The notes: a model not told the origin generated them from the sequence alone. A DNA stretch of 64,000 nucleotides from an uncultured Oscillospiraceae bacterium (GCA_910584835.1 CAJUEG010000005.1:113-64112); one strand, 5' to 3'. Shown: positions 13,728 to 59,770, numbered from the stretch's first letter. Made by a program: numbers and translations.

Positions 13728-14084
13728 TCAAGGCTTTTCATATTCGACCCGCAGCTTTTCCAAGGCTTTTTTTTCGATGCGGGACACATAGCTTCGGGAA
13801 ATCCCACACAGCGATGCGATTTCTCGCTGGGTGAGGGGAGGCTGGCCGCCCAGACCGTAGCGCAGGCGAATAATTTGGGCTTCCCGCCCGGTGAGGCAGG
13901 CGCTTACGCACCGGCGTACCTTGGCGCAGGCGTCCCGCAGGTCCAGCTCCTCCAGCATGTTGTCGTCCACCCGCACCACGTCGATGAGAGAGAGGGAGCC
14001 GTTTTCTGTTTCACTATCCAGCGAGTCGGAGAGAGACAGCTCACCCTGGAGCTTGCGCTGAGAGCGAAAATACATCAGTATCTC
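13728..14084 (-). CDS. sigK: RNA polymerase sporulation sigma factor SigK, 3' half (118 aa)
   Basis: EILMYFRSQRK...LTQREIASLCGISRSYVSRIEKKALEKL; no own start or RBS; joins the 5' half at AAAT. Confidence 0.95.
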   Translation of the reverse strand, partial: EILMYFRSQRKLQGELSLSDSLDSETENGSLSLIDVVRVDDNMLEELDLRDACAKVRRCVSACLTGREAQIIRLRYGLGGQPPLTQREIASLCGISRSYVSRIEKKALEKLRVEYEKP

Positions 14085-15852
14085 ATTTGCTATTCACTTC
14101 TAACGGCTCTATATCGCCCCTTTCTGCCGATTTTTCAAAATTTTCGGTATTTTTACACGATGTTACAGCGTTCCCCATGCCAACGGGGATTTCCGGGAAC
14201 TCAAACGCATACTCTGAGCCAAACAGGATGATGTGGGCTTGTGTCCCGTCCCATACGATCTCCTTGACGAAGGTGCGGATAGCCGCGCGTTTCTGTTCTA
14301 TCGTCATTCCGTCTACGCTGTCTTTAAAGGAGGCAAGGAGCTGTGCCAGCAGATCATACTCAATATCGGCCAAGGTATGGCTGGCGGTCAGTTCTTTGAG
14401 TTCGTCCAAATGCCGCTTTAAGGTTTCACCTTTGTCGTGGAGTTCATCGATCTGTTTTACAATGTAGGCTTCTGCGGAGGTGCCGGACGCTTTGCTTAAC
14501 GTAGATACCAGCCCTTTGATCTCGTCCTCGTTGGCGGTGATATCAGCTTCAATTTTGGCAAGCTGCTCGTCATAGCTCTGGCGATTACCTGTCAGCACCT
14601 TTTTACTGTGTTCAAGCTGCTGAAGGAAGTCGGAACCGTCCTCGCTCAATAACTTTAGCTGTTCTATGACGTTCGCGTCCATAATATTGCCGTTGCAATT
14701 CTTGATATTGCACACATGGCCCCGGCTCCGTTCTTTCATGGAACACAGATAGGTATAAATCGTTTCCCCTTTGGCGTTCAGCCGCTGGGAGGCTTTGGGG
14801 CGCATAAAATCGCCGCAGTTGCCGCAGATCAAGAGGCCGGAGAGCAGGGCAACATTGCTTCTGGGCTTGCGATAGCTCTTTGACCTGTTTTGTTCCAAAA
14901 GCTGCTGAACCTTTACCCAGGCTTTGCCGTCGATGGTTCCTGGGTGCTTTCCCACTGATACGATCCATTCGTCCATGGGCTTGACCTGGTTGGCCTTGCC
15001 TTGTTGCTGTAAGGTACGGTTGTAGGCCATAATGCCATGTATGCCGTCAAAATCGCTTTTCTCGGAAAACAGGTCTACGTTGTTTTCCGTCAGGTATTGA
15101 TAGGCGGCATCATCCGCAATCAGATAGACGGGGTTGGAGAGGATATTTTTGAGGGCAAAGCGCGTAAAGTCTTTCCCATTTTTGGTTGTGAATCCATTTT
15201 GCAATAGAAAGGTTTCTGTTTTGGTCAAAGAGTTGGTTTCCAGGAACTTTTCAAAGATCAGCTTTATCATGCTGATTTCTTCTGGGATGGGCTTCAGCTT
15301 ACAGGCTTTACGGGTTTTGCCATCTATCGTTACGTGGGAAATACTTTCCGAGGCATAGCCGGTAGGGGTCACGCCGCCCAGCCAGCGCCCGGTTTTAGAC
15401 AGCTCGTGCATATTATCCCGGATACGCTCGGCTATGGTTTCCCGTTCCAACTGGGAAAAGACCGAGGAAATATACATCATGGCCCGGCCCATGGGGGAGG
15501 ACGTGTCGAACTGCTCTTTGATGGAGATGAAGTCGATTTTCATTTGATTGAACTGCTCAATCAATTTTGCAAAGTCTCCAATATTGCGGCTGATCCGATC
15601 CAAGCGGTAGACTACGATGGCCCGAAAGCTATGCTCCTGGGCATCGGCCATCATCTTCTTAAACTTTGGGCGTTCCAGGGAACCCCCAGAGAAACCTTCA
15701 TCTTCATAGACCAAGGCATCATCGGCGGCGGAGTTTCCAAACTGCATACGGATGTACTGCTTGCACATTTCAATTTGGTTTTCAATGCTTTCTCCTTTCC
15801 CTGTAAATTTGGATTTGCGGGAGTAGATCACGAATTGTCCGTCGTTTTTCAT
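14083..15852 (-). CDS. Large serine recombinase (SpoIVCA/CD1231-like), 589 aa
   Basis: RBS GAGGTGA then ATG at 15852; IYSRKS catalytic Ser; DEGFSG; YRLDRISRN; QLERETIAERIRDN; CGNCG...YLC Zn ribbon. Confidence 0.95.
   Translation of the reverse strand: MKNDGQFVIYSRKSKFTGKGESIENQIEMCKQYIRMQFGNSAADDALVYEDEGFSGGSLERPKFKKMMADAQEHSFRAIVVYRLDRISRNIGDFAKLIEQFNQMKIDFISIKEQFDTSSPMGRAMMYISSVFSQLERETIAERIRDNMHELSKTGRWLGGVTPTGYASESISHVTIDGKTRKACKLKPIPEEISMIKLIFEKFLETNSLTKTETFLLQNGFTTKNGKDFTRFALKNILSNPVYLIADDAAYQYLTENNVDLFSEKSDFDGIHGIMAYNRTLQQQGKANQVKPMDEWIVSVGKHPGTIDGKAWVKVQQLLEQNRSKSYRKPRSNVALLSGLLICGNCGDFMRPKASQRLNAKGETIYTYLCSMKERSRGHVCNIKNCNGNIMDANVIEQLKLLSEDGSDFLQQLEHSKKVLTGNRQSYDEQLAKIEADITANEDEIKGLVSTLSKASGTSAEAYIVKQIDELHDKGETLKRHLDELKELTASHTLADIEYDLLAQLLASFKDSVDGMTIEQKRAAIRTFVKEIVWDGTQAHIILFGSEYAFEFPEIPVGMGNAVTSCKNTENFEKSAERGDIEPLEVNSK
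14085..14109. other. Left att junction (core plus inverted-repeat arm)
   Basis: ATTT-G-CTATTCACTtctAACGGCTC; arm is a 17/20 inverted match to the right-end arm. Confidence 0.9.
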
Positions 15853-15886
15853 TTGCGTCACCTCATTATGTTATATATTTTGAAGT

Positions 15887-15915
15887 ATTATATCATAGCG
15901 TCTACAATCCATCAA
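15887..15915 (-). promoter_or_regulatory. SigA-type promoter of the recombinase, extended -10
   Basis: TTGATG-N17-TATAAT with TGn before the -10. Confidence 0.65.
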
Positions 15916-16010
15916 TGGGAAGGGGAGAGTTTGTCAAGAGTTTTGATAGAGATATTTCAACAAATTTCCCATATTTCAATAATATTATAACATTTTTCAG
16001 CAAGATATGC

Positions 16011-16042
16011 AAAAAACGCGATGTGAACCATCGCGTTTTTTT
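16011..16042 (+). terminator. Terminator/attenuator-like hairpin just upstream of the repA RBS
   Basis: AAAAAACGCGATG-tgaac-CATCGCGTTTTTT. Confidence 0.55.
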
Positions 16043-16066
16043 CTTACCCCAAAGGAGGGCCTGCCT

Positions 16067-17011
16067 ATGCCGGAAGTCACTATATCCGATTATTTTTACG
16101 GCGCTGAATCAGAAGAATTTATCTATTTCAAAATTCCCCGCCTGCTGATCACGGACGAGAAATTCAAGCACGTTTCCACAGACGCCAAACTTCTTTATGG
16201 TATGCTGCTGGACCGCATGGGCCTGTCCGCGAAAAACAACTGGTACGACGACTGCGGGCGCGTCTATATCTACTACACCGTAGACGAGATATGCGAGGAT
16301 ATGTGCTGCGGACGGGACAAGGCCATGAAGCTGCTGGCCGAGCTGGACAAGAAGAAAGGGATCGGTTTGGTGGAGCGTGTCAAGCAGGGCCAGGGCCGCC
16401 CCACCAAGCTCTATGTCAAGCGGTTCACCACCCGGACAGCGCCCTCGAAACCCGTGGCTTCCCCTCCAGATAATTTCACGCCCTGCCCAGACGTCGAAAA
16501 AAACCACCCCAAGACGTCGGAAAAATCGACCTCAAGACGTCGGAAAAAACCACCTCAAGAGGTCGAAAAAACCGACCCTAATCATACTGAGGGAAATCAG
16601 CCTGACTTTAACCACCTTGATTCATCCATCCCTCCCCCCAAGCCCCCCGGCGCTGTCATGGGGATGGATCGATACGAATTGAGGGAGGAAGTCAAAGTAA
16701 ATATTGATTTTGAAGGCCTACAGCGGGCCCACCCCTATGACGATGTGGAGAGCCTTTTGGAGTTGGTAGTGGACGTGCTGGGCAGCACCGCCCCCACCCT
16801 GCGGATTGCTGGCGAAGCATTGCCAGCGGGCACAGTGAAGCAGCGGTTCCGAAAGCTGGACAGCACCCACATTGAGTACATCATTGAGGCCATGAGCCAG
16901 ACCACCACAAAAATAAACAATATCCGGGCCTATCTTCTCACGGCGCTTTACAACGCGCCGGTGACGATGGGCCCTTACTATTCCGCCGCCGTGCGGCATG
17001 ACTTTGGCTGA
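16067..17011 (+). CDS. repA: Replication initiator protein A (RepA_N with C-terminal helical domain)
   Basis: FIYFKIPRLL...AKLLYGMLLDRMGLS..NNW.D..GRVYIYY; INNIRAYLLTALYNAP; RBS AAGGAGG. Confidence 0.88.
   Translation: MPEVTISDYFYGAESEEFIYFKIPRLLITDEKFKHVSTDAKLLYGMLLDRMGLSAKNNWYDDCGRVYIYYTVDEICEDMCCGRDKAMKLLAELDKKKGIGLVERVKQGQGRPTKLYVKRFTTRTAPSKPVASPPDNFTPCPDVEKNHPKTSEKSTSRRRKKPPQEVEKTDPNHTEGNQPDFNHLDSSIPPPKPPGAVMGMDRYELREEVKVNIDFEGLQRAHPYDDVESLLELVVDVLGSTAPTLRIAGEALPAGTVKQRFRKLDSTHIEYIIEAMSQTTTKINNIRAYLLTALYNAPVTMGPYYSAAVRHDFG
16487..16578 (+). repeat. Four 23-bp iteron-like repeats inside repA (candidate oriV)
   Basis: AGA(C/G)GTCG at 16489, 16512, 16535, 16558. Confidence 0.75.
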
Positions 17012-17125: not shown

Positions 17126-19447
17126 ATGGCAAACGAACCCAGCAAGACCCCGACCCCCCAGCCCCAAGCCGTCCCGCTGTCCAAAATCCACGATCTGCCC
17201 GGCGTGGTGATCAGCAAGCAGCCGGACAAGAGCTACGGCGGCCTCGTCACCAGCATCCAGGCGGGCGGCGTGAAGGAGCCGGTGGTGCTCCGTCTGCGGG
17301 AGGACGGCGAATACCAGCTTGTCACCGGCTACCGCCGCCGCAGGGCGTGTGAGCTGGCAAAGCTGAAGGACATCCCCGCCCTGGTGTATGAGATGTCCAT
17401 GCCGTCGGCGCTGAACTATCACCGTCAGGTGAAGAACCAGCCCGGCATCCCGATCCCCGGCAAGCCGGTGCTGCCTGCCGCCCCGGACAAAAATGGGCCG
17501 ACAGCCGACGTCAAGGGGCCGGAAAATCCGACCACCCCCGCCGCCGCTGATAAGGCCAAGGACGGGGACAAGCCCGCCCAGGAGCCCAAACCCGCCGCCG
17601 ACCAGGGCCAGGGGAAGCCTGCCGAGGGGAAAAACCCGGCGCAGGGCCCCGCCCCCGCCGCCGCTGACAAGGCCGAGGACAGGGCCAAGCCTGTCCAGGA
17701 GCCCAAGCCCGCCGCTGCCCAGGGTGAGCAGAAGCCTGCCGAGGGGAAAGACCCGGTGCAGGCTCCCGCCGCCGCTGACAAGGCCAAGGACGGGGACAAG
17801 CCCGCCCAGGAGCCCAAGCCCGCCGCCGACCAGGGCCAGCAGAAGCCCATCGAAGGGAAGGACCCGGCGCAGGCCCCCGCCCCCGCCGCCGCTGACAAGG
17901 CCAAGGATGGGGCCAAGCCCGCCCAGGAGCCCAAGCCCGCCGCCGACCAGGGCCAGCAGAAGCCCATCGAAGGGAAGGACCCGGCGCAGGCCGACGCCCC
18001 CGCCGCCGCTGACAAGGCCAAGGACGGGGCCAAGCCTGCCCAGGAGCCCAAGCCCGCCGCTGCCCAGGGTGAGCAGAAGCCTGCCGAGGGGAAAGACCCG
18101 GCGCAGACTCCCGCCCCCGCCGCTGCTGACAAGACCAAGGATGGGGCCAAGCCCGCCCAGGAGCCCAAGCCCGCCGCCCAGGATCAGGAGAAACCCGCCC
18201 AGGCCCCCGCTGTCACCGGCACCGCAGCCAAGGGCCCCATCGGCACAGCCATCTCCCAGGTGCTTCCGGATCGGCTTTCGCCCCCGGACGAGGCGGCCAG
18301 GAAGGATTTTCCCGCGCCCAAGGAAAGTGAATCCTTTTCCGTGGTGCTCCATCCGGCCTACCTGGAAAAATCCGACTACAACACCGTATCGGTGGACACC
18401 AAGAGCGAGGACTATGCTGAGCTGAAAAAGTCCATCGAGCTCAACGGCGTGAAGGACCCGGTACTGGCCCGGATCGGGGAAAAGGGCACCCTGGAGATCA
18501 TTTCCGGCCAGCGCCGCCACATGATCGCCACGGAGCTGAACTACCCCGTCCCCACCATTATCCAGAAAATTTCCGACGCCGACGCCAAAATCCTGGTGGC
18601 GGACGGCAACCTCCACCGGCCCAAAATTTCCACCTACGATCTGTCCCGCACCCTGCGGATGAAGATGGAGGGCATGAAGCAGAAGGCGGGCCGCCGCAAA
18701 AAGGGCAGTTTCAAAGCCGAGGAACTTTATAGTGATGTGAAGCTGGCCCAGGAGATGGGTATGCCGGTCAGCAAGCTCAACCGCCTTGTCCGGCTGTCCG
18801 AGGCCACCAAGGATGTGTGTGACCGGGTGGACGATGGTTCCCTCACCCTGTCCGTCGCGTCGGCCCTGTCCTTCTTGAAGCCGGGAAACCAGGATGGCGT
18901 ACTCCATCTGCTGGATTTGGGCTATAAAGTGCCTGCGGAACGGGTGGAATACATGAAGAAGGTGGAAAAGGAGGGCAAGCTGAACGATCAGTCCATGCGG
19001 GATGTGTTGGACGGCAAAAACGTGCTGGACCCGCCCCAGGAGACGGCGGCCCACGCGCCCGAACCCACCCAGGCCAGCGCCCCCGCCGCGTCCGCCATCC
19101 CCCCGTCCCCGGACGTGGGCCACTCCACCCCGGCGCCGGACGCCCCCGCCGCCGGACAGCCCGGACAGGCCCCGGAAGGGGCTGAGCCCGCTGTCCCTGA
19201 TGGCCCGTCCGCTCCCGCGCCCCAGGCCCAGGAAGGCCAGGAGCCCGTTGACGGCAGACAGGATCGGCCCGAGTACACGAAGGTGGTTTTGGCTGGGGAT
19301 CGCCTGCGCAAATATTTTCCGGACGTGATGATGACGCCCCGGGAGATCGAGGAAAGCATCTACGAGGCCCTGGAGGAGCGCCGCCAGCGCCAGCAGAAGG
19401 AGAATGAAAGGCTGACGATCTTCCCCAAGCGGGGGCCGAAGCATTAA
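17126..19447 (+). CDS. ParB/RepB/Spo0J family protein with two ParB domains and a repeat linker
   Basis: GVKEPVVLR...LVTGYRRRRA and GVKDPVLAR...ISGQRRH; about six ~40-aa AAADKAKDG.KPAQEPKP repeats; HTH-like LAQEMGMPVSKLNRLVRL. Confidence 0.8.
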   Translation: MANEPSKTPTPQPQAVPLSKIHDLPGVVISKQPDKSYGGLVTSIQAGGVKEPVVLRLREDGEYQLVTGYRRRRACELAKLKDIPALVYEMSMPSALNYHRQVKNQPGIPIPGKPVLPAAPDKNGPTADVKGPENPTTPAAADKAKDGDKPAQEPKPAADQGQGKPAEGKNPAQGPAPAAADKAEDRAKPVQEPKPAAAQGEQKPAEGKDPVQAPAAADKAKDGDKPAQEPKPAADQGQQKPIEGKDPAQAPAPAAADKAKDGAKPAQEPKPAADQGQQKPIEGKDPAQADAPAAADKAKDGAKPAQEPKPAAAQGEQKPAEGKDPAQTPAPAAADKTKDGAKPAQEPKPAAQDQEKPAQAPAVTGTAAKGPIGTAISQVLPDRLSPPDEAARKDFPAPKESESFSVVLHPAYLEKSDYNTVSVDTKSEDYAELKKSIELNGVKDPVLARIGEKGTLEIISGQRRHMIATELNYPVPTIIQKISDADAKILVADGNLHRPKISTYDLSRTLRMKMEGMKQKAGRRKKGSFKAEELYSDVKLAQEMGMPVSKLNRLVRLSEATKDVCDRVDDGSLTLSVASALSFLKPGNQDGVLHLLDLGYKVPAERVEYMKKVEKEGKLNDQSMRDVLDGKNVLDPPQETAAHAPEPTQASAPAASAIPPSPDVGHSTPAPDAPAAGQPGQAPEGAEPAVPDGPSAPAPQAQEGQEPVDGRQDRPEYTKVVLAGDRLRKYFPDVMMTPREIEESIYEALEERRQRQQKENERLTIFPKRGPKH

Positions 19448-20116
19448 ATGGTAGAGTTCACCGCCAATGTCGCCAATCTGGGCAAATACAATGCCGGGGT
19501 GCTGACCGATACCGCGCTTCCCTTTCCCACCACCAAAGAGCGGGTGAGGGCCGCCCTACAGAAAATCGGTGTGGACGGCCTGCGCTATGAGGAAATCATC
19601 ATTTTGGACTATTCCATCGGCGTCAAAGGGGTGGCACGGGCCCTGGGTGAGTTCACCCACATCGACGAGCTGAACTACCTTGCCAGCCGGTTGAATGAGC
19701 TTGACCCAGAAGAATTGATGAAATTTACCGCCGCCGTGGAGCATGGGGAGTACGCCAGCAGCGCGGAGGAATTGATCAACCTCACCTACAACCTGGATCA
19801 CTACGAACTCTATCCCGTCCAGAACGCGGAAGAATACGGCCTCTGGCTGGTGGATGAACTTATGGTATTGCAACTGCCGGAGCAGGCGCGGGATTACTTC
19901 GATTTTGAAGCCTACGGCGAGGCCACCGCCATCAACGAGGGCGGCACCTTCACCTCCCATGGGTATATGCTGGCTGGGCCTGAGCCCTTCCAAAAGGTGT
20001 ATGACGGCCAGCACATCCCGGAGCAGTACCAGGTGTTCCAGTACCCCGTCCGGCAAAAGATCACTGTGCCCCGTTCCCACAGGAGCCGGGACAGCCCCAG
20101 GCACAAGCGCCCTTGA
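19448..20116 (+). CDS. ardA: Antirestriction protein ArdA
   Basis: ANLGKYNAG; IDELNYLASRL; YFDFEAYG; G.FT..GY; acidic core. Confidence 0.85.
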   Translation: MVEFTANVANLGKYNAGVLTDTALPFPTTKERVRAALQKIGVDGLRYEEIIILDYSIGVKGVARALGEFTHIDELNYLASRLNELDPEELMKFTAAVEHGEYASSAEELINLTYNLDHYELYPVQNAEEYGLWLVDELMVLQLPEQARDYFDFEAYGEATAINEGGTFTSHGYMLAGPEPFQKVYDGQHIPEQYQVFQYPVRQKITVPRSHRSRDSPRHKRP

Positions 20117-20129
20117 GGGCGCTTTTTTT
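20105..20129 (+). terminator. Terminator-like hairpin
   Basis: AAGCGCCC-ttga-GGGCGCTTTTTTT. Confidence 0.6.
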
Positions 20130-20143
20130 GCGCCCGAAAGCGG

Positions 20144-20989: not shown

Positions 20990-21003
20990 AAGGAGCTGGA
21001 TAT

Positions 21004-21411
21004 TTGAACGTTTTGGTAGTAGAGCCAGGCATGGCCCCCTATGAAAAGGAGGTCAACGGGCTGGAAGAAATGCAGGCCACGGTGGGCGGCCTGATCACAG
21101 CCAGCTATCCCTATGAGGAACCCGTTGCCATCGTCAGCAATGACGAGAGCATCAATATGGGCATGGAGTTCAACCGCAGCATTGAGGGCGGCTACGGCGG
21201 TATCTTTGGCCCGTTCTTTGTCTGCGGGCTGACTGAGGACAGCTTTTGTTCCCTCACCCCGGAGCAGATGGAGCATTTCAAGAAGAAATTCCACCAAGCG
21301 GAAATCCTGATCGCCGCAAAGGGCAACACCCCCATCACGCTGAAAGTGGACCCCTGCCCCGCCACGCCGCCCGAGCATCCCAGACGCCCGCCCAAGACGC
21401 CGGGGCGGTAA
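21004..21411 (+). CDS. DUF3846-like ICE protein
   Basis: VLVVEPG..PY...LEEMQATVGGLI...FNR...GPFFVCG...SL. Confidence 0.7.
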   Translation: MNVLVVEPGMAPYEKEVNGLEEMQATVGGLITASYPYEEPVAIVSNDESINMGMEFNRSIEGGYGGIFGPFFVCGLTEDSFCSLTPEQMEHFKKKFHQAEILIAAKGNTPITLKVDPCPATPPEHPRRPPKTPGR

Positions 21412-21414
21412 ACC

Positions 21415-23288: not shown

Positions 23289-23319
23289 CCCTGCCAAGAC
23301 AGCGCCGCGTGCGGCGCTG

Positions 23320-47475: not shown

Positions 47476-47501
47476 GGTATGCTGTGGCAGGGTGATTATC
47501 T

Positions 47502-48220: not shown

Positions 48221-48268
<48 letters not shown>

Positions 48269-50754: not shown

Positions 50755-50827
50755 GCCGAGAAATATGTCTCACGGTGAGACACATTAAAGCAAGGGATAT
50801 TTTGAGCATAAAGGAGGCGAACCGCTT

Positions 50828-51301: not shown

Positions 51302-54300
51302 AGCGCAGAATTTTGAGTATCATCACCGCTCTGGCCCTGTGCCTGAGCCTTTGCCCCACCTGGGCGCTGGCTGCGGAGGCAGACCCGTCCCTCTGCGAGC
51401 ACCACCCGGAACATACCGAGGACTGCGGCTACACCGCCCCCACCGAGGGCCACGACTGCGGCCATGAGCACACAGCGGAGTGCTACACGCTGGGCGTCCT
51501 CCCCGACGCGGACAGCGGCGACCCCTACGAGATCGGCGGGGACACGGAAAACCTGCTGGACTGCCAGCACAGCCATAACAGCGAATGTGGCTATGTAGAG
51601 GCCGACCCCGGCGCGCCCTGCGGGTATGAGTGCCGTATCTGTCCCATCGAGGACTTGATCGCCGCCCTGCCGGAGCAGGTGACGGAGGACAACCGGGCGG
51701 ACGTGGAGGCACAGCTCCAGGAGATTCTCGGCCTGTTTTCAGACCTGACCGAGGAGGAACAGGAGGAGATCAACCTCTCCCGAATCTATGCGCTGCAAGG
51801 GGCGCTGGACGAAGCCAACAACCCCATGCCCCTGGCGGGGGCCGTTGAGTACGTGGACGCGGCTGGGAACGCCCAGCAAAGCCCGGCGGACTGCGTGACC
51901 ATCACGGCAGACATGGCGAACAAGAATTTGACCGGCGGCTGGTATGTAGCGGAGGGGAATGTCACCATTAACGGCGCACTCAATTTTAATGGCGAAACCC
52001 ACCTCATTCTCGCCGACGGCTGTACGCTGACCGTGAATAACAACTTACAAACCACGAATCTGACCATTTACGGCCAGACGAACGGCACGGGCTTCCTCTG
52101 TGCGGGCAATAACAGTCTGAGAGCGCCGGCTATTGGCGCTCTGTCATCAAATGTTGCCATTACCATCAATGGCGGCTGCGTACAAGCGATGAGCTTTACC
52201 ATTGTCGTAGGAACAGCGCCATATTATGTAATTGGCGGTCTTGATGGTAGTACTGTAACTATCAACGGTGGCATTGTGGCTGCCAAGGACTCTTATAATA
52301 CCGGACGCACTTTTCCTCAAAACTGTACAGCCAATAGTTCCCGAGGCTGCATTGTCGCTCGGGACGGCGTTGGGGAGGTCTACGGCAGCATGACTCTGGC
52401 GGAAACCTCCGGGAGCGGCATCACGCTATCCTCCCTGCACATCAGCAAGGGCGCAAGCCTGAACAGCCCGGGCAGATGGAAAAGCATTTCCATTACTATG
52501 GAGGATCTGCCGACTGACGATCAATTTAATATTACATTAAAAGATGGGATAAACGCAGCTTCCACCGAGGAGGAAATCAGGAATGCCATTCAAGTCCAGT
52601 CTCCTTATAAAGAGATAGGCCATACCGGAGCCTTCACCATAACAGGTTTGTCGGATGAGAATGTCACACAGATTACAAAAAGCGAGGATGGAACGTGCAT
52701 CGTCACTTTTACCAAGAACGGAAAAGTAGTTACTAGAAATTTCAAGCTGGAAAAGTTGAAAATCGATTCCTCCAGCGTAAGTCTGCCTTGGGACAGTTCT
52801 TACGCTTACACCGGCAGCGCCATTGAGCCAGAGTTCACTGTGACTGTGGAGAAGAAGGTTTTGACAAAGGGTACAGATTATACGGTGGAATACGCCAATA
52901 ACATCAATATTGGTAATGCAACCCTCACCGTGACCGGCATAGGGAACTACGAAGGCACCGTCGAGAAGACTTTTAGAATCACCGATTCGGATGCACTGAT
53001 AGAAGTACAGTATGTCGACGAGTCCGGGCAGAGGCAGACTGCCCAGGCAAAGGCCATCTCAACAATGCTTAACACGACCCAGCTGACTTTGGAGGAGGGC
53101 TGGTACTTCGTGCAAGGCGCAGCGGCCAGGTTTACTATAACTGTGCCGGCTGGGACTACCAGTTACCTCATCCTGCCGGACGGTAGTTCTCTGTACGCGG
53201 GGAGCTTGAATCTGAGTGGCAGCTTGACTATTTATGGGCAGTCCGGAAACAGAGGAAAGCTGGATGCGGGCCCTAGTATGAACAGTACCCTGGTTCCTAT
53301 CCAGCTTAACAATGCGGGAACCCTCACCGTCAATGGTGGGAATTTGTCTGTGACGAAATCTATCGGGGGAGATTTGGCAATCAAACTTTCAAAAAACTGT
53401 ATCTTCACCTACAACAGCGAGAGCGGCCTTTTTAGAGTCAACGGCAGCTTCAATAATAATAATGGCACCCTGCAAACCGAGCGGTTGACGGAGGATATGA
53501 TCGCCGTTGATACAGAAAGGCTCCCCGTTGGCACCGATGAGGATTTGTCGGAAACGGTCAAGGGCTGCGTCAGCCTGGAAAACCCCACCTACGCCGGGAA
53601 AGAGTTTATCCTAACCGGCTGGACGCAGTCGTCCGTCACCAGGCAGGACAACTGCACCTACATCGTCACTTACTCCCACGAAACGAGGGGGACGGTCAGC
53701 AAAACGGTATCGCTGGGCCAGCCCTGCGACCACCTAAGCCAGGGGTACATCAGCAATAACGACGGCACCCACACCAAGACCTGTCTGGACTGCGGCAAAA
53801 CGTGGGATGCGGAGGGCTGCGCCTACGTTTTCAGCGGTGCCGACGGCACCTGCGCGGCGTGCGGGGACAGCGTGACCGTGGCGGTTTCCGGCACGGAGAA
53901 CCTGATCTATGACGGCACTGAGAAAAAGCCGGGAGTGACCGTCACAAGGGCTGGTACGGAGTTGGCAACGAGCAATTATACGGTAGCCTACACCGACAAC
54001 ACCAACGCCGGTACAGCCAAAGTGACCGTGACCATCGGGAATAATCAGGGCACATATAACGGGAGTTTCACCATCGGCAAGGCCACGCCCACGATCACAT
54101 GGGACACCACGGCCCAGGAGCTGCCCTATACCGGCAATCCAGCGGCCATTACAGCGCCCGCCGTGAAGCTGGTGAACAACGAAAACTTTGGGGGGACAAT
54201 CAGCTATTCCTACGCGACCCAAGGCGGCACCGAGTATAAGGACGGCCTGCCTACCAACGCCGGGACATACACCATCAAGGCCAGTATTGCGGCCCAGGGC

Positions 54301-57207
54301 AACTACACCGCCGCCGACAGCACAAACACGCTGACGCTGACCATAAATCCGACCCCAGTAACGTTGACTTTTGCCAATCAGACGATTGCCTACGGCGACA
54401 CACCGACAGGAGCTACCGCTGACCCCGCCAGCGCAAAGATCGAGTATTCCTACACCACCGAAGCAGGCGGCACACCGATCTCCGGCTGGCCCACAAACGC
54501 GGGAACCTACACCGTCACCGCCAAGGTTAAAGCCACCGGCAACTACGGGGAGGCCATCCAAACCGCAACCCTGACGATTAACCCAAAAGCGGTCAGCAAT
54601 CCAACCATTGAGCTGTCCCCCAGCAGCTTTGACTATGACGGCACTGCAAAGAAGCCCGCTGTCACCGTGAAGGACGGCACTACCGTGATCCCGGCCAGCG
54701 AGTACACAGTGGCCTACAGCAACAACATCAACGCTGGCACCGCCACCGTCACCATCACCGACAAGACGGGCGGCAACTACACCGTCAGCGGCACCACGAC
54801 CTTCACTATCACCGCCAAGCCCCTCACCGGGGCGAAAGTGGAAGCCACCGGCACGTTTACCTACACCGGGAACGCACAGGAGCCAGCACCCACCGTGACC
54901 CTGGGCGGGCAACCGCTGACGGCGAACACCGACTACACAGTGACCTACGACGACAACACCAACGCTGGCACCGCCAAAATCACCGTCACCGGGACGGGCA
55001 ACTATTCCGGCACCGCCCAGGGCACCTTTACCATCGGCAGGGCCGACCTGACCGCAGACGGCACCGGCATCGCCAGCGGCACCTATGGCGATAAGCTGTC
55101 CGGGCTGACCGTTTCCGGCCTGACCGCCAAGCTGGGCGAGGCCACGGTGACAGGCACCTGGAAGCTGACCGGGGACACCGTGCCCAATGTGGGGGACAGC
55201 GGCCAATACACCGCCACCTTCACCCCGGCCACCGGTGCGGGCAACTACAACGCGCTGACGGCCCAAGTGACACTGAGCATCGCCAAGGCAAACTATACCG
55301 GCACCACCACGGCAAGTACCTCCGCCAAATTCGGCACCACCGGGACCTATGACCTCTCGGCCCTGCTCCCGGATGGGGCCACGGCGGGGACAGCGGCCAC
55401 CACCAGCGATATTTTTGAGGGGACGCCCACCGTTAGCGGCAAGGCCCTGACCTACCAACTGAAAGCAGGCGCAACGGTTGGCAACACCGGCCCGATCACC
55501 GTGCCCGTGATCTCCACGAACTATCAGGAGTTCAACTTGACCATCACCGTCACCGTGACGGACAAATTCGTGCCCACCCTGACCGTCAGCCCCATCACCG
55601 TCACCTACAGCGGCGAGGCAATCCCCGGCACCGCCATCAAGGGCACGGCCAAGGTGGGGAGCACCACCGTCCCCGGCACCTGGGCCTTTGCCTCCGGCGA
55701 AGCTGTCACCAACGTGGCGGACAGCGGCACAAAGACCGTCAAATTCGTGCCAACCGATAAGGCCACCTACGCCGAGGCCACCGCCGTCGTCGTTGTGACC
55801 ATCGGCAAGGCTACCCCCACGGGCGCGCCCAAGTACACCGCAATTTCTGCCAGCGGCAAGACCCTGGCCGACGCCGGACTGACCACCGAGGGCGGCACTT
55901 TCAGCACTACGGGCACCGTGGCCTGGGCCCTGGGCACAGATACAGCGGTAACGGCCAACACCCAGTACGAGTGGACGTTCACTCCCACCGACGCCGCCAA
56001 CTACAACACCCTGACGGGCAAGATCACACTTTGGGTACAGAGCACGGGCGGCGGCAGCTACGTGCCCTCCGGCCCCGGCAGCTCCAGCCTGCCCGTGACC
56101 ACCACCGGCCAGGGCAGCACCACCACGACCACCACGACCACCGCGGCCCCCACCGCTACCACCCAGGGCGGCACAGCAACCACCACCATCAACACCACCA
56201 TGGGCCAGGAGATCGTGAAGCAGGCCGTGGCTAACAAGAGCGAGGAAGTGGTGATCGCCCCCAAAGTCACCGGGAGCGTCACCAAGGCCGAGGTTTCCAT
56301 CCCGGCCTCAACCGTGGGCCAGATCGGGAGCCAGACCAGCGCGAGCCTGACCGTTTCCACCCCCGTGGCCGATGTGACCATCCCCAACGGGGGCCTGGGC
56401 AGCCTGGGCAGCGCGGGCGGCACCGTGACTGTCACAGCGGAGCAGGTCGGGAACCAGGTGGAGCTAACCGTGACGGCGGGCGGCCAGACCGTTCAGACCG
56501 TCCCAGGCGGCGTAACCCTCACCGTGCCCGCGTCCAACACCACCCCCGGCACCGTGGCCGTGCTGGTTCGCCCGGACGGCACGCGGCAGGTGGTGCGGAA
56601 ATCCGTGGCGGACGGGGACAGCGTGACGATCCCGCTGGACGGCTCAGCCAAGCTGGAAATCGTGGACAACAGCGGCTATTTTGCCGACGTGCCCGCCACG
56701 AGCTGGGCGGCGGACGCCGTGGCCTTTGCCAGCGGACACGAGCTGTTCAGCGGCACCGCCCCCGGCCAGTTCAGCCCCAACACCCCCATGAGCCGGGGGA
56801 TGCTGGCGGTGGTGCTCCACAACCTGGAGAGCAACCCCGCCCAGGCCCTCACGGGCGCATTTATCGACGTGGACAACAGCCAGTGGTATGCCGAGGGCGT
56901 GGCCTGGGCGGAGGCCCAGGGCATCATCGGGGGCTACGGCAACGGGCAGTTTGGCCCCAATGACAACATCACCAGGGAGCAGTTGGCCGTCATGCTGTGG
57001 CGCTATGCTGGAAGCCCTGCCGCGACGGATCGGGAGCTGCACTTTGCCGACGCGCACCGGGCCAGCGACTGGGCATTGGAAGCCCTGCGCTGGGCCACGG
57101 AGAACGGTATCATCAATGGAAAGGGCGGCGGAATCCTCGATCCCACCGGGCAGGCCACACGTGCGGAAACGGCGCAGATGTTAAAAAATTTCATGGAATC
57201 CAAATAA
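51298..57207 (+). CDS. Large SLH-anchored surface protein with Ig/MBG-like repeats
   Basis: Signal peptide; Cys/His-rich N-region; DYTVxY.NN.NAGTA repeats; three C-terminal SLH repeats. Confidence 0.9.
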   Translation: MKRRILSIITALALCLSLCPTWALAAEADPSLCEHHPEHTEDCGYTAPTEGHDCGHEHTAECYTLGVLPDADSGDPYEIGGDTENLLDCQHSHNSECGYVEADPGAPCGYECRICPIEDLIAALPEQVTEDNRADVEAQLQEILGLFSDLTEEEQEEINLSRIYALQGALDEANNPMPLAGAVEYVDAAGNAQQSPADCVTITADMANKNLTGGWYVAEGNVTINGALNFNGETHLILADGCTLTVNNNLQTTNLTIYGQTNGTGFLCAGNNSLRAPAIGALSSNVAITINGGCVQAMSFTIVVGTAPYYVIGGLDGSTVTINGGIVAAKDSYNTGRTFPQNCTANSSRGCIVARDGVGEVYGSMTLAETSGSGITLSSLHISKGASLNSPGRWKSISITMEDLPTDDQFNITLKDGINAASTEEEIRNAIQVQSPYKEIGHTGAFTITGLSDENVTQITKSEDGTCIVTFTKNGKVVTRNFKLEKLKIDSSSVSLPWDSSYAYTGSAIEPEFTVTVEKKVLTKGTDYTVEYANNINIGNATLTVTGIGNYEGTVEKTFRITDSDALIEVQYVDESGQRQTAQAKAISTMLNTTQLTLEEGWYFVQGAAARFTITVPAGTTSYLILPDGSSLYAGSLNLSGSLTIYGQSGNRGKLDAGPSMNSTLVPIQLNNAGTLTVNGGNLSVTKSIGGDLAIKLSKNCIFTYNSESGLFRVNGSFNNNNGTLQTERLTEDMIAVDTERLPVGTDEDLSETVKGCVSLENPTYAGKEFILTGWTQSSVTRQDNCTYIVTYSHETRGTVSKTVSLGQPCDHLSQGYISNNDGTHTKTCLDCGKTWDAEGCAYVFSGADGTCAACGDSVTVAVSGTENLIYDGTEKKPGVTVTRAGTELATSNYTVAYTDNTNAGTAKVTVTIGNNQGTYNGSFTIGKATPTITWDTTAQELPYTGNPAAITAPAVKLVNNENFGGTISYSYATQGGTEYKDGLPTNAGTYTIKASIAAQGNYTAADSTNTLTLTINPTPVTLTFANQTIAYGDTPTGATADPASAKIEYSYTTEAGGTPISGWPTNAGTYTVTAKVKATGNYGEAIQTATLTINPKAVSNPTIELSPSSFDYDGTAKKPAVTVKDGTTVIPASEYTVAYSNNINAGTATVTITDKTGGNYTVSGTTTFTITAKPLTGAKVEATGTFTYTGNAQEPAPTVTLGGQPLTANTDYTVTYDDNTNAGTAKITVTGTGNYSGTAQGTFTIGRADLTADGTGIASGTYGDKLSGLTVSGLTAKLGEATVTGTWKLTGDTVPNVGDSGQYTATFTPATGAGNYNALTAQVTLSIAKANYTGTTTASTSAKFGTTGTYDLSALLPDGATAGTAATTSDIFEGTPTVSGKALTYQLKAGATVGNTGPITVPVISTNYQEFNLTITVTVTDKFVPTLTVSPITVTYSGEAIPGTAIKGTAKVGSTTVPGTWAFASGEAVTNVADSGTKTVKFVPTDKATYAEATAVVVVTIGKATPTGAPKYTAISASGKTLADAGLTTEGGTFSTTGTVAWALGTDTAVTANTQYEWTFTPTDAANYNTLTGKITLWVQSTGGGSYVPSGPGSSSLPVTTTGQGSTTTTTTTTAAPTATTQGGTATTTINTTMGQEIVKQAVANKSEEVVIAPKVTGSVTKAEVSIPASTVGQIGSQTSASLTVSTPVADVTIPNGGLGSLGSAGGTVTVTAEQVGNQVELTVTAGGQTVQTVPGGVTLTVPASNTTPGTVAVLVRPDGTRQVVRKSVADGDSVTIPLDGSAKLEIVDNSGYFADVPATSWAADAVAFASGHELFSGTAPGQFSPNTPMSRGMLAVVLHNLESNPAQALTGAFIDVDNSQWYAEGVAWAEAQGIIGGYGNGQFGPNDNITREQLAVMLWRYAGSPAATDRELHFADAHRASDWALEALRWATENGIINGKGGGILDPTGQATRAETAQMLKNFMESK

Positions 57208-57217
57208 GGGCATGAGA

Positions 57218-57249
57218 GAACAGGGCGGACAATCCGCCCTGTTCTTTTT
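57218..57249 (+). terminator. Rho-independent terminator
   Basis: GAACAGGGCGGA-caa-TCCGCCCTGTTC then T-run. Confidence 0.8.
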
Positions 57250-57434
57250 GCACCAAATTTTGCAAAATATGTAGAAAAAAAGCAGAAAGAAATAAATCTC
57301 ACCATGAGACACAATTTGAAAAATCAGTCGTTTCCCATAACCTTTTAGAATATTTTGACTACTTTTTGCGCTTATCTTTCAAAATCGGGATTTTTAGGAA
57401 GTTAAGTTATAGAAAGGAAAAAGGAGAAGGGCAT

Positions 57435-57863
57435 ATGGACAGAAGATATGAGCAATTCAATGAAATGACCTTTGAATCCTACATCAGAAAAGCAATCGAC
57501 AATGCGGTAAATAAAGTAGGCAAAAAGCAAGCCGAGCGAGAGCAATGGGAACAATCCTTATCCACCATGACAGACGCGGATTTATATTCCGTTTCCCCAA
57601 AGGACGCAGAAATTAAGGGCGTGGGGCAGGTGGGCCGGATATTCCGAGTGCAGGAAGAAGATATATCCATTTATGATGAAACATTGGGGCAAGCTCTTTT
57701 GTCCCTTCTGCCCAAAGATCGCAACGTGATTTTGATGTATTATTTCCTCAAAATGACCGATGAAAAGATTTCCCATGTGCTGGGTGTCACCCGCGCTGCT
57801 GTTCAGCAGCGGCGGAACAACGCCATAAAAAAGCTACACGCACGTTTGGAGGATAGCACATGA
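57435..57863 (+). CDS. Sigma-70 region 4-like protein (Tn916 Orf7-like)
   Basis: TFESYIRK; LGQALLSL...R.VILMYYF..MTD..I...LG..R..V...R. Confidence 0.8.
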   Translation: MDRRYEQFNEMTFESYIRKAIDNAVNKVGKKQAEREQWEQSLSTMTDADLYSVSPKDAEIKGVGQVGRIFRVQEEDISIYDETLGQALLSLLPKDRNVILMYYFLKMTDEKISHVLGVTRAAVQQRRNNAIKKLHARLEDST

Positions 57864-58105
57864 AATGGGTGCCCTTTCCTGTCATATCGGCAGCGAAAGA
57901 ATATGATGCGGAGGCGATTGAGTTCATTTGCCGCCACTTTGAGAGATACATAGTGTACCGCAGCGTCCGAAAATACAGCGATTTATACGGAAATGAGAAA
58001 TCCTTTTTGGATGATGAACGCTATTCCGAGGCGCAAACGGCCATGCTGTCCGCCATTTTCTCGTTTGACTTTAGGGAGCCCCCCGAGGATTATCACGCCG
58101 GTTGA
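57860..58105 (+). CDS. Small HTH protein (Tn916 Orf8-like)
   Basis: PFPVI.AA...D.EAI..I..HF..YI; ATGA overlap with the Orf7-like gene. Confidence 0.75.
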   Translation: MKWVPFPVISAAKEYDAEAIEFICRHFERYIVYRSVRKYSDLYGNEKSFLDDERYSEAQTAMLSAIFSFDFREPPEDYHAG

Positions 58106-58184
58106 ATTTTCATCCGGCAGGAGTATGCCACATACGGCGGCACATTCCTGCGGGCTGAAAATAGCCTGAATCACAACTGAATAG

Positions 58185-58458
58185 GGCAGTCAGATACGTT
58201 CCATATCGCGTTGAGCCAAGCGGCGGGTGCGCAGGGACGTTCCACCGGGAAGGGAGGGAATAGGCCGGGAGGAACCGAGCGAACACCACCAGCGCCGCAA
58301 AGCGGCCCCAGGCAGGGCCGCGGGCGATTATGCGCGTATGGGTAATGATGATACTTGCGTCAGCTATGCGTCACAGTATAGGGCGCCCCGCCATGGGTAT
58401 GGAGGGAGGCACGGTAATTTCCTATGAGGCGGTTTGCCAACCGCCGTCTGAATCTGCC
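58185..58458 (+). ncRNA. Candidate structured RNA, ~275 nt
   Basis: Ends pair (GGCAG-TCAGA / TCTGA-at-CTGCC); several internal stems; no convincing ORF. Confidence 0.5.
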
Positions 58459-58481
58459 TTTGGAGCTATATCGTGAACGGC

Positions 58482-58512
58482 AAAATCCGCGCTGACCGCC
58501 AGCGCGGATTTT
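58482..58512 (+). terminator. Terminator-like hairpin
   Basis: AAAATCCGCGCTG-accgc-CAGCGCGGATTTT. Confidence 0.7.
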
Positions 58513-58541
58513 GTCGTTTCAAATCTCACCGTGAGACACGA

Positions 58542-58569
58542 ATATGAAACAGTCTATGCGGCATATCTT
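58542..58569 (+). promoter_or_regulatory. SigE-like promoter
   Basis: ATA-N17-CATATCTT, same geometry as the sigK promoter. Confidence 0.55.
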
Positions 58570-58603
58570 CCCTGTGTAGACTGACAAAAGGGGGCGCAAG
58601 ACA

Positions 58604-58789
58604 GTTAATATCATCGTACATTACCCGGAAGATAAAGAGAAACAGCGGGAACTCGCCAAAAGGGTCGCTTACGTCCACGCTCAGACGATAGCCGAAAAGT
58701 TGGCGACCCTGTCCTGCCCTGTGGAACAGAAAGCGGCGCTATGCGATGAAATCAAGAAACGATACAAGGCCGCCAATAAAATGAGATAA
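58604..58789 (+). CDS. 61-aa protein absent from the ORF track; candidate recombination directionality factor
   Basis: AGGGGG-N9-GTT; (M)NIIVHYPEDKEKQRELAKRVAYVHAQTIAEKLATLSCPVEQKAALCDEIKKRYKAANKMR. Confidence 0.6.
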   Translation, partial: VNIIVHYPEDKEKQRELAKRVAYVHAQTIAEKLATLSCPVEQKAALCDEIKKRYKAANKMR

Positions 58790-58823
58790 GAAGCGAGGAG
58801 TAGGGGAGAGGGAAAGCCATCCT

Positions 58824-59342
58824 CTACTCCTCGAATCTTTTTAGGTTCTTCCAGGTTCTTTTTGTGATCGACACCCGATTCTGTTCCCATTGCTGCAAGG
58901 TTCCAAAGGGGACGCCGAGGTATTTTGCGTACTCTTTTTGCGTCATGCTTTTCTGTGCTCGGGCCTGCCTGATCTGCTGGCCCTGGCCGTGATAGAGGAA
59001 CAGGTTGAAATCATCCAGGAGCCTTGTGACAGGGACGGAGAACAGCTCCGCAATTTTCCGCATGGTTTCAATGGGATAATAGTCTCGCCCAATTTCTTCA
59101 TAGCTGGAGTATGTGGTGCGGTCTATCCCAGCGTACTCCGCCACATCCTTTTGCCGCAAACCCTGGCTGTATCTGTACCAGCGGAGCTTGTCCGGCGTAT
59201 TGTGGATTTGAGAGGGATCGGTGTATTGGATGTTGAACTTTTCTGCCTCCACCAGCGTGTGAGGTTGGACAAGCTGGAAGCTGTGAATGTAGAGAGGTGC
59301 GTAGATAACGCCCGTGGGAGTATGGAGAACCATTATTTTCAT
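58824..59342 (-). CDS. Protein with two XRE-type HTH domains
   Basis: KLRWYR...LRQKDVAEYAGIDRTTYSSYE and IRQAR...MTQKEYAKYLGVPFGTLQQWEQ. Confidence 0.85.
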   Translation of the reverse strand: MKIMVLHTPTGVIYAPLYIHSFQLVQPHTLVEAEKFNIQYTDPSQIHNTPDKLRWYRYSQGLRQKDVAEYAGIDRTTYSSYEEIGRDYYPIETMRKIAELFSVPVTRLLDDFNLFLYHGQGQQIRQARAQKSMTQKEYAKYLGVPFGTLQQWEQNRVSITKRTWKNLKRFEE

Positions 59343-59416
59343 GCGGCCCGATATGTGGCCGAACGTACGCCATTTTTCGCCAAAGTATGTACGATTGCCC
59401 ACATCGAGGGACTTTT

Positions 59417-59441
59417 GAGCCGTTGCGAGTGAATAGTATTT
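59417..59441. other. Right att junction (inverted-repeat arm plus core)
   Basis: GAGCCGTTgcgAGTGAATAG-T-ATTT. Confidence 0.9.
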
Positions 59442-59770
59442 TCAATGCATCGGCTGGCATAGGTGGCAAGCCTGACGTTTTTGTCCGGCTTGAATGTGGA
59501 TACCCCTTTAATCAGCCCAATGGTTCCGATGGAAATCAAGTCGTCCTGATCACCATTGGGTGTGTAATATTTTTTTACAATGTGCGCCACCAGCCGCAGA
59601 TTATGTTCAATGAGCATATCCCTGGCATCATCATCCCCTTGAGCCATCCGATCCAGACAATTCTGCTCCTCCTCCCGGGTAAGGGCCCGGGGAAAGGAGC
59701 CCGTATTCCCCGCCAGCCGCAGGGTAAAGAACAGTCCGTTCAGTGTCAATAACAGCCATGCCGTCCACAT
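59438..59770 (-). CDS. sigK: RNA polymerase sporulation sigma factor SigK, 5' half (111 aa, with pro-sequence)
   Basis: LIEHNLRLVAHIVKKY; DDLISIGTIGLIKG; RLATYASRCIEN, then similarity breaks. Confidence 0.95.

Follow-up and report, generated by a model that had tools for sequence, protein, structure and literature searches.

A putative integrative conjugative element with a skin-type recombination unit inside the sigK gene of a rodent-gut Oscillospiraceae bacterium

The split sigK gene and its junctions

In an uncultured, rodent-gut Oscillospiraceae bacterium, the sporulation gene sigK is broken after codon 111 by an insert of about 45.35 kb, described here as a putative integrative conjugative element (ICE) that carries the recombination unit of a sigK-intervening ('skin') element. 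The gene lies on the minus strand of the window, by which we mean the whole stretch of 64,000 nucleotides that was analysed (GCA_910584835.1, CAJUEG010000005.1:113-64112), and its two halves occupy positions 59770-59438 and 14087-13728 of the same contig. Both halves match TIGR02846, the NCBIfam SigK equivalog, and the two matches are collinear and abut each other, which bears out the original prediction that sigK is interrupted by a 45-kb insert. Protein families were called by Pfam and NCBIfam scans, and the features of the junctions and of the element ends are as follows:

59438-59770, minus strand: sigK 5' half, codons 1-111, ending ...RCIEN; TIGR02846 positions 10-111, 137.3 bits
13728-14087, minus strand: sigK 3' half, N EILMYFR... 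to the stop; TIGR02846 positions 111-226, 106.8 bits; Sigma70_r4 domain
59417-59441, minus strand: attL, made up of the AAAT core at 59441-59438 and, after it, the 20-nt arm CTATTCACTCGCAACGGCTC
14085-14109, minus strand: attR, in which the arm GAGCCGTTAGAAGTGAATAG is followed by C and by the AAAT core at 14088-14085
14085-59437, no strand assigned: putative ICE, about 45.35 kb counting one copy of the AAAT core
14083-15861, minus strand: large serine recombinase (LSR), 592 amino acids; Resolvase, Recombinase and Zn_ribbon_recom domains
15862-16006, no strand assigned: divergent promoter region between the LSR gene and repA, with sigma-70-like sites on the minus strand
58604-58789, plus strand: conserved protein of about 60 amino acids, candidate recombination directionality factor (RDF)
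58824-59402, minus strand: Xre-like protein of 192 amino acids with two helix-turn-helix (HTH) domains, starting 35 bp inside attL in the same direction as sigK

The 5' half starts with the ATG at 59770 and ends with the codons TGC ATT GAA AAT at 59438, beyond which the sequence is unrelated to sigK; in the integrated state, its frame continues into the element as far as a stop at 59339. The 3' half begins at 14087 with AAT GAG ATA CTG ATG TAT and has its stop codon at 13728-13730. On each half the SigE models score 24-28 bits below the SigK model. As a genome-wide detector of sigK, TIGR02846 was discarded: SigE paralogues score 245-268 bits with it, and there was no match above the cut-off in 21 genomes. 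Because the model also scores SigE paralogues, the halves were assigned by the higher SigK than SigE score together with orthologue alignment.

When the halves were joined by script within the AAAT common to both element junctions, the product was a protein of 229 amino acids, as had been proposed for a crossover in this core. Over residues 1-228 it aligns without gaps to uninterrupted SigK sequences of the same genus (95%, 94% and 93% identity for loci L009, L011 and L010, respectively), and seven further loci are 81%-95% identical to it. At the predicted joint these relatives read ...ATTGARAAY|GARATY..., an exact match of position. The SigK of the window has an N-terminal extension, its alignment starting at position 10 of TIGR02846. 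The postulated 20-bp inverted terminal arms could also be confirmed: CTATTCACTnnnAACGGCTC has two copies in the window, in inverted orientation at 14090-14109 (plus) and 59417-59436 (minus), and none is expected from 100 shuffles. An intact second sigK, the finding that would have spoken against a need for excision, was not detected in the bacterium's own assembly (217 contigs, 84% complete), in which the runner-up to the 5' half is a SigE-like paralogue of 53% identity.

The split gene stays under purifying selection and looks functional, as judged from its substitution pattern. For the 3' half, the ratio of nonsynonymous to synonymous divergence (dN/dS) is 0.03-0.21 between the window and four ICE-bearing genomes and 0.07-0.16 between the window and three genomes with an uninterrupted sigK; in a fourth of the latter (L010) the synonymous divergence (dS) is saturated and gives no ratio.

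It is very improbable that the split is an assembly artefact, namely a contig chimera of an ICE and two unrelated sigK fragments. The assembly is indeed a fragmented draft (217 contigs, 84% complete), but a single contig includes both junctions and has host genes to either side of them. An independently sequenced species (G259) has the same architecture at both element ends, and the architecture recurs in dozens of other assemblies. In addition, 63-82% of the words sampled from 55000-63999, a segment that spans attL, are present in each of 14 metagenome runs (rodent gut or gut), which come from eight or more studies.

A recombinase clade specific for one site in sigK

The LSR gene ends at attR, where its TGA stop (14085-14083) is formed by the T of the core together with GA from the GAG codon of sigK. 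Relatives of the recombinase were collected in two ways. Among 200 sampled genomes of the family, 23 have an LSR match at E <= 1e-60, not counting that of the window. An identity of at least 36% across the tblastn match was reached by 21 loci, and at 17 of these 21 the LSR immediately adjoins a half of sigK that is interrupted at the same residue (3' half residue 1 or 5' half residue 111). A scan of public genomes, one per species, in which a recombinase alignment served as the query yielded at least 594 relatives, of which 79 loci were kept. At 63 of them the LSR is found at the same sigK codon: at 61 the sigK 3' half starts with residue 1 at the 3' end of the LSR gene, and at two the LSR abuts a 5' half that stops at residue 111. 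Two loci have the 3' half at a distance of 5-8 kb, and at six the contig ends within 200 nt. For the remaining eight no sigK half was detected by tblastn, and two of these (L103, L075) show the continuation of sigK by eye. The record titles of the clade name Oscillospiraceae, Flavonifractor, Lacrimispora and [Clostridium] viride as well as metagenome-assembled genomes (MAGs) labelled Christensenellaceae, Defluviitaleaceae and Pelosinus.

The elements at this codon are mostly small and free of phage or conjugation markers: complete elements measure 2.7-15.6 kb among the public loci (n=14) and 9-24 kb in the family draw (n=6). The Xre-like gene just inside attL occurs only in a subset of them. 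By sequence comparison, the ends of the window element are the same recombination unit as that of the small skin elements residing at this codon in many clostridial genera. Phage relatives of the LSR were considered as well and set aside; the best ones found, those of Clostridium phage HM T, Terrisporobacter phage TPELB_ph1 and vB_CpeS-CP51, are only 38-40% identical to it.

The premise of the original prediction that skin elements are prophage remnants turned out to be too narrow. It holds for the defective prophages described in the sigK genes of B. subtilis and C. difficile as well as of C. tetani; however, a non-phage intervening element, gin, has already been published (PMC5595907), and a survey of 15 skin elements of 2.6-48 kb reports that all have in common only a SpoIVCA-like recombinase at the edge beside spoIIIC (bioRxiv 10.1101/2022.02.25.481979). 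At this codon, the LSR clade of the window is found in many genera, mostly in small elements that are free of phage and conjugation markers. The arrangement in the window agrees with the placement of the skin recombinase as the survey describes it (bioRxiv 10.1101/2022.02.25.481979).

Gene content of the element

Between the two end modules, the element carries the genes listed here:

16007-17011, plus strand: RepA_N / DUF6017 replication initiator (Pfam)
17126-19447, plus strand: ParB-like protein of 773 amino acids with two ParB_N stretches
19448-22368, plus strand: ArdA, PAPS-reductase-like protein, DUF3846 protein and ArdC-N/M78 protein (anti-restriction or establishment block)
23289-23545, plus strand: inverted-repeat cluster 5' of the nikA-relaxase genes, candidate origin of transfer (oriT)
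23546-25173, plus strand: NikA/MobC accessory protein (23546-23854) and MobA/VirD2-type relaxase (23827-25173)
27915-35371, plus strand: sortase (27915-28721), an open reading frame (ORF) and a SpaA-repeat surface adhesin of 1908 amino acids (29645-35371)
36172-37002: pentapeptide-repeat protein
36999-38765, plus strand: VirD4-like coupling protein, CD1115 family (NF045973, 493 bits, cut-off 250)
38596-39096, plus strand: TrbC/VirB2-like protein
39160-40005, plus strand: possible VirB6-like membrane protein (weak matches only, E 0.03-0.5)
40568-41150, minus strand: ParE toxin (40568-40886) and Phd/YefM antitoxin (40890-41150)
41526-43907, plus strand: VirB4-like ATPase, CD1110 family (NF045971, 936 bits, cut-off 325)
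43935-44999, plus strand: C5 DNA methylase
45147-47090, plus strand: NlpC/P60-CHAP wall hydrolase
47182-57207, no strand assigned: cargo region with an HTH_26 regulator (47182-47472, minus), a YpsA-SLOG protein and others
48385-50754, within the cargo: MalT/LuxR-type regulator
51298-57207, within the cargo: protein of 1969 amino acids with SLH domains
57366-58105, plus strand: small sigma-like protein (Sigma70_r4) and HTH_16 protein, regulatory pair of the ICE

A DUF3801 protein is listed between the relaxase and the sortase, and an MT-A70 methylase between the TrbC-like protein and the ParE/Phd pair. Thus far the gene set had been foreseen correctly: relaxase, T4SS genes (coupling protein and VirB4), RepA and the toxin-antitoxin pair are supported by family matches, whereas the oriT is represented by the inverted-repeat cluster only and stays a candidate. 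The integrase is accompanied by defined att sites, and relaxase, coupling protein and VirB4 are all intact in the window copy. With the wall hydrolase and the sortase and adhesin, these make up a conjugation set of the Firmicute type. Nor did the supposed lack of obvious frameshifts have to be revised, as the ICE proteins of the window align over their full length with their counterparts in G259 without a stop on the window side. The Pfam and NCBIfam scans of the element (PHROGs was not used) returned no phage structural genes; conjugation, partition and anti-restriction genes were found instead. None of the window proteins matched a resistance family in these scans, and a role in drug resistance that was considered for the pentapeptide-repeat protein was dropped because it has no NCBIfam family at E <= 1e-5.

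The VirB4 and the coupling protein, which score far above the cut-offs of NF045971 and NF045973, liken the element to the CD1110/CD1115-family conjugative elements of clostridia, of which many related copies exist in the genomes searched. It differs from them in the integration module, the skin-type LSR of the window being directed at sigK. The CD numbers of the two families are presumably linked to CTn4 of C. difficile.

A side observation concerns a 15-nt oriented near-palindrome, RTYTCAYSRTGAGAC, which has 16 copies between 17017 and 58537, all of them inside the ICE (0.13 expected). The copies have one orientation throughout, and almost every one of them falls between genes of the operon on the plus strand (e.g. 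23399, 39125, 43908, 50767 and 58523). Nine copies occupy corresponding places in the ICE of G259, and none occurs in the non-conjugative relatives examined. The motif may serve the ParB-like protein as an operator or form a hairpin in RNA or single-stranded DNA. The copy at 58523, immediately upstream of the small ORF, was also considered as a conserved operator of this gene; this was rejected, as its place is not conserved in G259, where the motif family is found elsewhere in the ICE.

Related copies, decay and horizontal spread

A survey of relatives, as suggested along with the original prediction, showed genomes with an uninterrupted sigK (L009, L010, L011) and also homologous ICEs at the same codon. 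ICE markers, i.e. homologues of RepA, ParB, ArdA, the relaxase, the coupling protein or VirB4, stand beside the LSR at seven of the 79 public loci. The genome of G259 (= G030), an isolate of another species of the same genus, carries a collinear ICE of 86-93% nucleotide identity on contigs C15 and C72, with the same architecture as the window at both element ends (L054, L127), and in G260 the LSR and VirB4 are each 95% identical to those of the window.

The element could be a domesticated remnant, in other words an ordinary skin element that is excised in the mother cell and no longer transfers, its conjugation genes being on their way to decay. Such decay is visible in its relatives. The G259 copy is damaged, with RepA almost absent and a stop inside the coupling-protein match; G263 (L056) has kept RepA and some pore genes, with VirB4 present only as fragments; and a 24-kb element in G155 contains both end modules and some cargo but no conjugation genes. 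The small size of the complete public elements points in the same direction. Against this, RepA, relaxase, coupling protein, VirB4 and hydrolase of the window are full length and without stops, and the low synonymous divergence of the element ends implies movement between species after their split. We regard a remnant as quite unlikely for the window copy.

The comparison of divergences is as follows. Between the window and G259, the ICE end at 58580-59480 is 93-99% identical and the adjoining sigK 81%, and the LSR gene is 92-98% identical as against 83-87% in the sigK 3' half. The corresponding dS values are 0.19 for the LSR, 0.11 for the Xre-like gene and 0.20 for the small ORF, compared to 0.61 for the sigK 3' half and 1.7 for sigK codons 66-111; for G260, they are 0.28 (LSR) and 0.81 (sigK). 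The host tsf-rpsB-pyrH-frr block of the window is 84-85% identical to those of G259 and G260. Synonymous divergence of the ICE ends is thus 3-9 times below that of the abutting sigK, which argues for horizontal spread between species.

A candidate directionality factor and its regulation

The small elements contain a conserved ORF of 55-65 amino acids that is usually divergent from the LSR gene. Using eight of these ORFs as tblastn queries, a single homologue was found in the window, at 58604-58786 (E 7e-12 to 1e-5). The ORF is conserved in eight of nine small elements examined (in L116, it was missing from a first list and was found on re-reading) and also in the window, G259, G262 and G155. 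Together with the Xre-like gene it forms a conserved pair at attL in G259, G262, G155 and L102. All seven differences in 186 nt between the window and G259 are synonymous, a pattern from which the ORF of about 60 codons is judged to be under purifying selection. Attempts to name the protein gave a best Pfam match of E 0.017 and, from the protein atlas, clusters of 'hypothetical protein' only, with a recognition value below the mark. A likeness to the N-terminal part of the Xre-like protein, seen by eye in a strand motif, was discarded (hhalign probability 0.3%, E 0.23).

Complex prediction with LSR residues 165-592 and the small protein gave a score of 0.61, the best of three controls reaching 0.01, and thus supports a binding of the two. 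The mark for this score is reached by 116 of 157 solved complexes and two of 215 mismatched pairs, counts that hold roughly because own alignments were used. The prediction runs agreed in at least 92% of the contacts, and the predicted local distance difference test value (pLDDT) of the partner was at least 67. In the model, residues 1-25 of the small protein would contact LSR residues 389-423, 497-508 and 530-551, i.e. the zinc-domain and coiled-coil region, to which a strand would be added. Verified RDFs are described to bind at the junction of zinc domain and coiled coil, often adding a strand (PMC12286644). The small protein would most likely act as the RDF of the LSR.

The two genes differ in their upstream regions. 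That of the LSR gene holds the sigma-70-like sites TTGATG-17-TATAAT and TTTGCA-18-TATAAT, both with TG, and altogether four sigma-70-like sites as compared to 1.4 +/- 1.1 in shuffles. Upstream of the small ORF no sigma-70-like promoter was found. A CATA-type -10-like motif precedes the small ORF at all 12 loci printed, at a distance of 35-45 nt in 11 of them and of 28 nt in L119, and in six small elements (L110, L114, L116, L117, L118, L122) it is part of the pattern ACATAC-GGACAC-N-CATACA. These motifs look like -10 elements of SigE and SigK and a SpoIIID box.

By eye, the small-element pattern also resembles the region upstream of the host sigK in the window (59771-59830), which reads AATACGGACAC...CATACAGT; ATAC-GGACAC-(8-10 nt)-CATACA is what the sigK and small-ORF upstream regions have in common. 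Such a pattern would suit a co-regulation of both genes in the mother cell.

The recombinase frame and the state of integration

When excision was simulated by script, the LSR frame was found to cross the joint and enter the Xre-like ORF with no stop in between, which lengthens the LSR by 203-204 residues. This in-frame fusion, read in the true LSR frame, is seen in all five elements that have the Xre-like gene (window, G259, G262, G155 and L102). Over the 60 nt at the beginning of the element, no stop occurs in the fusion frame in six of six sequences; in either of the two remaining frames, stops are present in four of the six. Moreover, a MAG contig of 2808 nt (L050) contains the LSR and the Xre-like gene as one open frame of 858 amino acids across an attP-like joint; it looks like a captured excised circle or a tandem copy. 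C-terminal extensions of LSRs have been proposed to block the RDF site (PMC12286644), and by analogy a role of the LSR-Xre extension in directionality is plausible.

We mention a further idea that is doubtful, namely that the element senses its own state through a long and a short LSR, and that the mother cell, which is doomed in any case, serves it as a donor at no cost. The integrated element would make the short, excision-competent form of 592 amino acids, the stop of which is supplied by sigK. In the circle, about 200 residues with two HTH domains would be added to the LSR just after the predicted RDF-docking strand (540-551), and this long form, made by the circle alone, would obstruct the RDF or compete with it, so that integration is favoured or the element is repressed. 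On leaving the chromosome of the mother cell, the element would then give back an intact sigK and at the same time set free a transfer-ready ICE in a cell that is about to lyse. Because the forespore would keep the integrated copy, horizontal transfer would cost no vertical transmission.

Host sporulation and evidence from metagenomes

The host has an intact Spo0A (272 bits, cut-off 200) as well as SigE- and SigG-like genes, and from this gene set it looks able to sporulate. A BclA-type collagen-repeat protein, which is exosporium-like, is encoded near the window start among the genes of 2-13512.

Read mapping for the rejoined site attB had been suggested along with the original prediction. 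Here, contigs rather than raw reads of four public runs were compared with window 44001-64000, so that depths are contig depths and not copy numbers. A single contig of run X8 matches the window upward of 59438; at this end it has 126 unmatched letters, the first of which are identical to the reverse complement of positions 14055-14084. This contig is the exact rejoined sigK of this species, joined at the predicted base. The empty site was thus found in one of the four runs, although excision and an ICE-free strain are not distinguished by it. Among the matches listed for runs X1, X3 and X7 there was no loose end at 59437/59438, from which nothing was concluded.

In the same host genome, spoIVA is split as well. 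Its pieces lie on two contigs (G000:C29:4646-5842, minus, and G000:C36:2126-2407, plus; loci L131 and L132) and cover TIGR02836 positions 5-403 and 399-492. A 563-amino-acid LSR of another clade (L132 447-2138) is located directly upstream of the 3' piece. Within a draw of 41 genomes, 38 have a match to spoIVA, which is uninterrupted in 36 and split in the present genome (G000) and in G037. The literature search found no paper on a spoIVA intervening element.

Interpretation

Taken together, we consider it probable that 14085-59437 is an ICE which resides in codon 111 of sigK, carries a skin-type recombination unit, is excised developmentally and can be transferred. Since the element has the same cut-and-rejoin unit as the small inserts at the same spot, the host probably needs it removed in order to make spores, and excision would, with similar likelihood, take place in the mother cell during sporulation. 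The LSR would be made from sigma-A-like promoters and the small protein probably from a mother-cell-type promoter. Together, the LSR and the RDF would recombine attL with attR inside AAAT, which would restore the gene of the 229-amino-acid pro-SigK and release a circular ICE, while the forespore would retain the integrated copy. Present-day transfer would start with nicking of the circle in the donor cell, and after transfer the LSR alone would integrate the element into the highly conserved RCIEN-EILM stretch of the recipient sigK.

Several points weigh against this interpretation. The assembly being 84% complete, a second sigK may exist. Several mating-pore components have no recognised match in Pfam or NCBIfam, and, as the damaged G259 copy indicates, not all ICE copies are transmissible. 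The interior ICE modules are only 84-90% identical to those of G259, compared to 84% for the host tsf-rpsB-pyrH-frr block. The signal of horizontal spread is therefore strongest for the recombination unit, and a discordance that is pronounced at the ends only might reflect an exchange of this unit alone. The small ORF of the window and that of G259 lack a start codon of the ATG, GTG or TTG type (58598-58612); AAG stands where G262 has ATG. A good ribosome-binding site, AAAGGGGG, lies ahead of the ORF at 58587-58594, and the exclusively synonymous changes despite the lack of a standard start suggest a non-canonical or very weak initiation. The upstream region of the small ORF in the window is also a weaker match to the motif, the GGACA-like box of the small elements and of G155 being degenerate here. 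Finally, the attB contig, which comes from contigs of one run in four, may stem from an ICE-free strain.

Some of these points would equally fit a plain knock-out, in which sigK serves the ICE merely as a safe and common site, excision occurs for conjugation only, and the carriers do not bring sporulation to an end or the whole lineage has lost it. In favour of this are the promoters of the LSR gene, which are sigma-70-like with no obvious mother-cell promoter, and the missing canonical start of the small ORF in the window and G259. The interruption of spoIVA could mean relaxed selection on sporulation, and in X8 the empty site co-occurs with a low depth of the ICE, as ICE-free strains would give (in contig depths, not copy numbers). 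However, the sigK halves are intact and their dN/dS of 0.03-0.21 is like that of uninterrupted orthologues at dS values of 0.6-2.3, the same LSR unit lies in sigK across many genera with the 3' halves intact, both pieces of spoIVA are intact with an LSR bounding that split too, and Spo0A is intact. A plain knock-out is, in our opinion, unlikely, and a developmentally excised ICE is the interpretation that we prefer.

Comparison with known intervening elements

The developmentally excised ICE proposed here has counterparts among known intervening elements, which are compared by their published descriptions. For skinCd of C. difficile, it has been reported that the LSR is sigma-A driven and that an RDF of 72 amino acids is controlled by sigma-E and SpoIIID (PMC5025042). 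The upstream regions of the two genes in the window parallel this regulation. Like the window element, skinCd (LSR CD1231, RDF CD1234) is a sigK insert with an edge LSR that has a sigma-A-type promoter, and both have a small protein of 60-72 amino acids that belongs to no database family, its binding to the LSR being a model prediction in the window (PMC5025042). In contrast, skinCd is described as a prophage-like remnant of 14.6 kb at a different site, in a sigK without a pro-sequence (PMC5025042). The B. subtilis element skinBs (recombinase SpoIVCA) is also an LSR-bearing insert that halves sigK, is of similar size (48 kb) and has inverted repeats flanking a short core (PMC5025042; bioRxiv 10.1101/2022.02.25.481979). 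Unlike the window element, it is a defective prophage with its recombinase gene under sigma-E and SpoIIID control. PhiS63 of C. perfringens is likewise a mobile element in sigK, functional and precisely excised; it differs in being a siphovirus that lies in the 3' part of sigK with its int gene opposite to sigK (PMC3442830).

Among non-viral units, gin in the gerE gene of Bacillus cereus (GirC/GirX) is a non-phage element with an LSR and a small RDF, as in the window (PMC5595907). Its authors suggested conjugative spread; as described there, gin has no conjugation genes of its own, unlike the window element (PMC5595907). Suzuki et al. (2019) swapped units between skin, SPbeta and ICEBs1, and a skin-type unit (attL-int-rdf-attR) was able to drive another mobile element (PMC6957869). 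Those chimeras were made in the laboratory (PMC6957869), whereas the window holds a natural ICE with a skin-type unit that also occurs in several species.

The intervening elements known before are, in the sources cited, defective prophages, one live phage and small non-viral units of unexplained spread. The literature search returned no conjugative element described as intervening in a sporulation gene, the supplements of the bioRxiv survey with the gene contents of the skin elements lying outside this search. A natural ICE with a skin-type recombination unit would supply the missing route of spread, and because few stretches of sigK are as conserved as the target, any spore-former would offer a site. 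The element would also link developmental DNA rearrangement and conjugation in gut Clostridia. Moreover, the decay series that is visible from the 45-kb ICE down to a minimal unit of 2.7 kb suggests how skin elements arise. The ideas on LSR directionality put forward here, a new RDF family and a state-dependent C-terminal extension, could be relevant to serine integrases as tools for genome engineering.

Further observations

A second hot spot in sigK lies near codon 66, behind ...HIVKK; there, 11 of 36 genomes of the same genus have inserts of 5-55 kb with a different LSR of 555 amino acids, and these genomes include G016:C45 (L133), G023, G024, G002, G035, G030 and G026. With both hot spots occupied, sigK of G259 (= G030) is in three pieces. 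In G261 (= G026), the 5' piece extends to residue 67 and the 3' half borders on an LSR, the middle piece not being found there. G170 has three sigK pieces on one contig with an LSR that looks truncated, and G202 has two pieces, the 5' one starting from profile position 60.

The small elements L110, L114 and L116 (7.8-8.1 kb) as well as L133 appear, from ORF translations read by eye, to carry metabolic or spore-related cargo and not phage genes. For instance, hydrogenase-like and alpha-galactosidase-like ORFs are seen at the Lacrimispora loci, and LysM and a glycoside-hydrolase-like ORF in G016. At the start of the window lies the 3' part of another recombinase gene (2-1138, plus strand; Recombinase, Zn_ribbon_recom), which runs off this edge, and it is followed by the gene of the BclA-type protein (1772-3205, minus strand) and by that of a surface protein of 1716 amino acids with leucine-rich and Listeria-Bacteroides repeats (8362-13512, plus strand).

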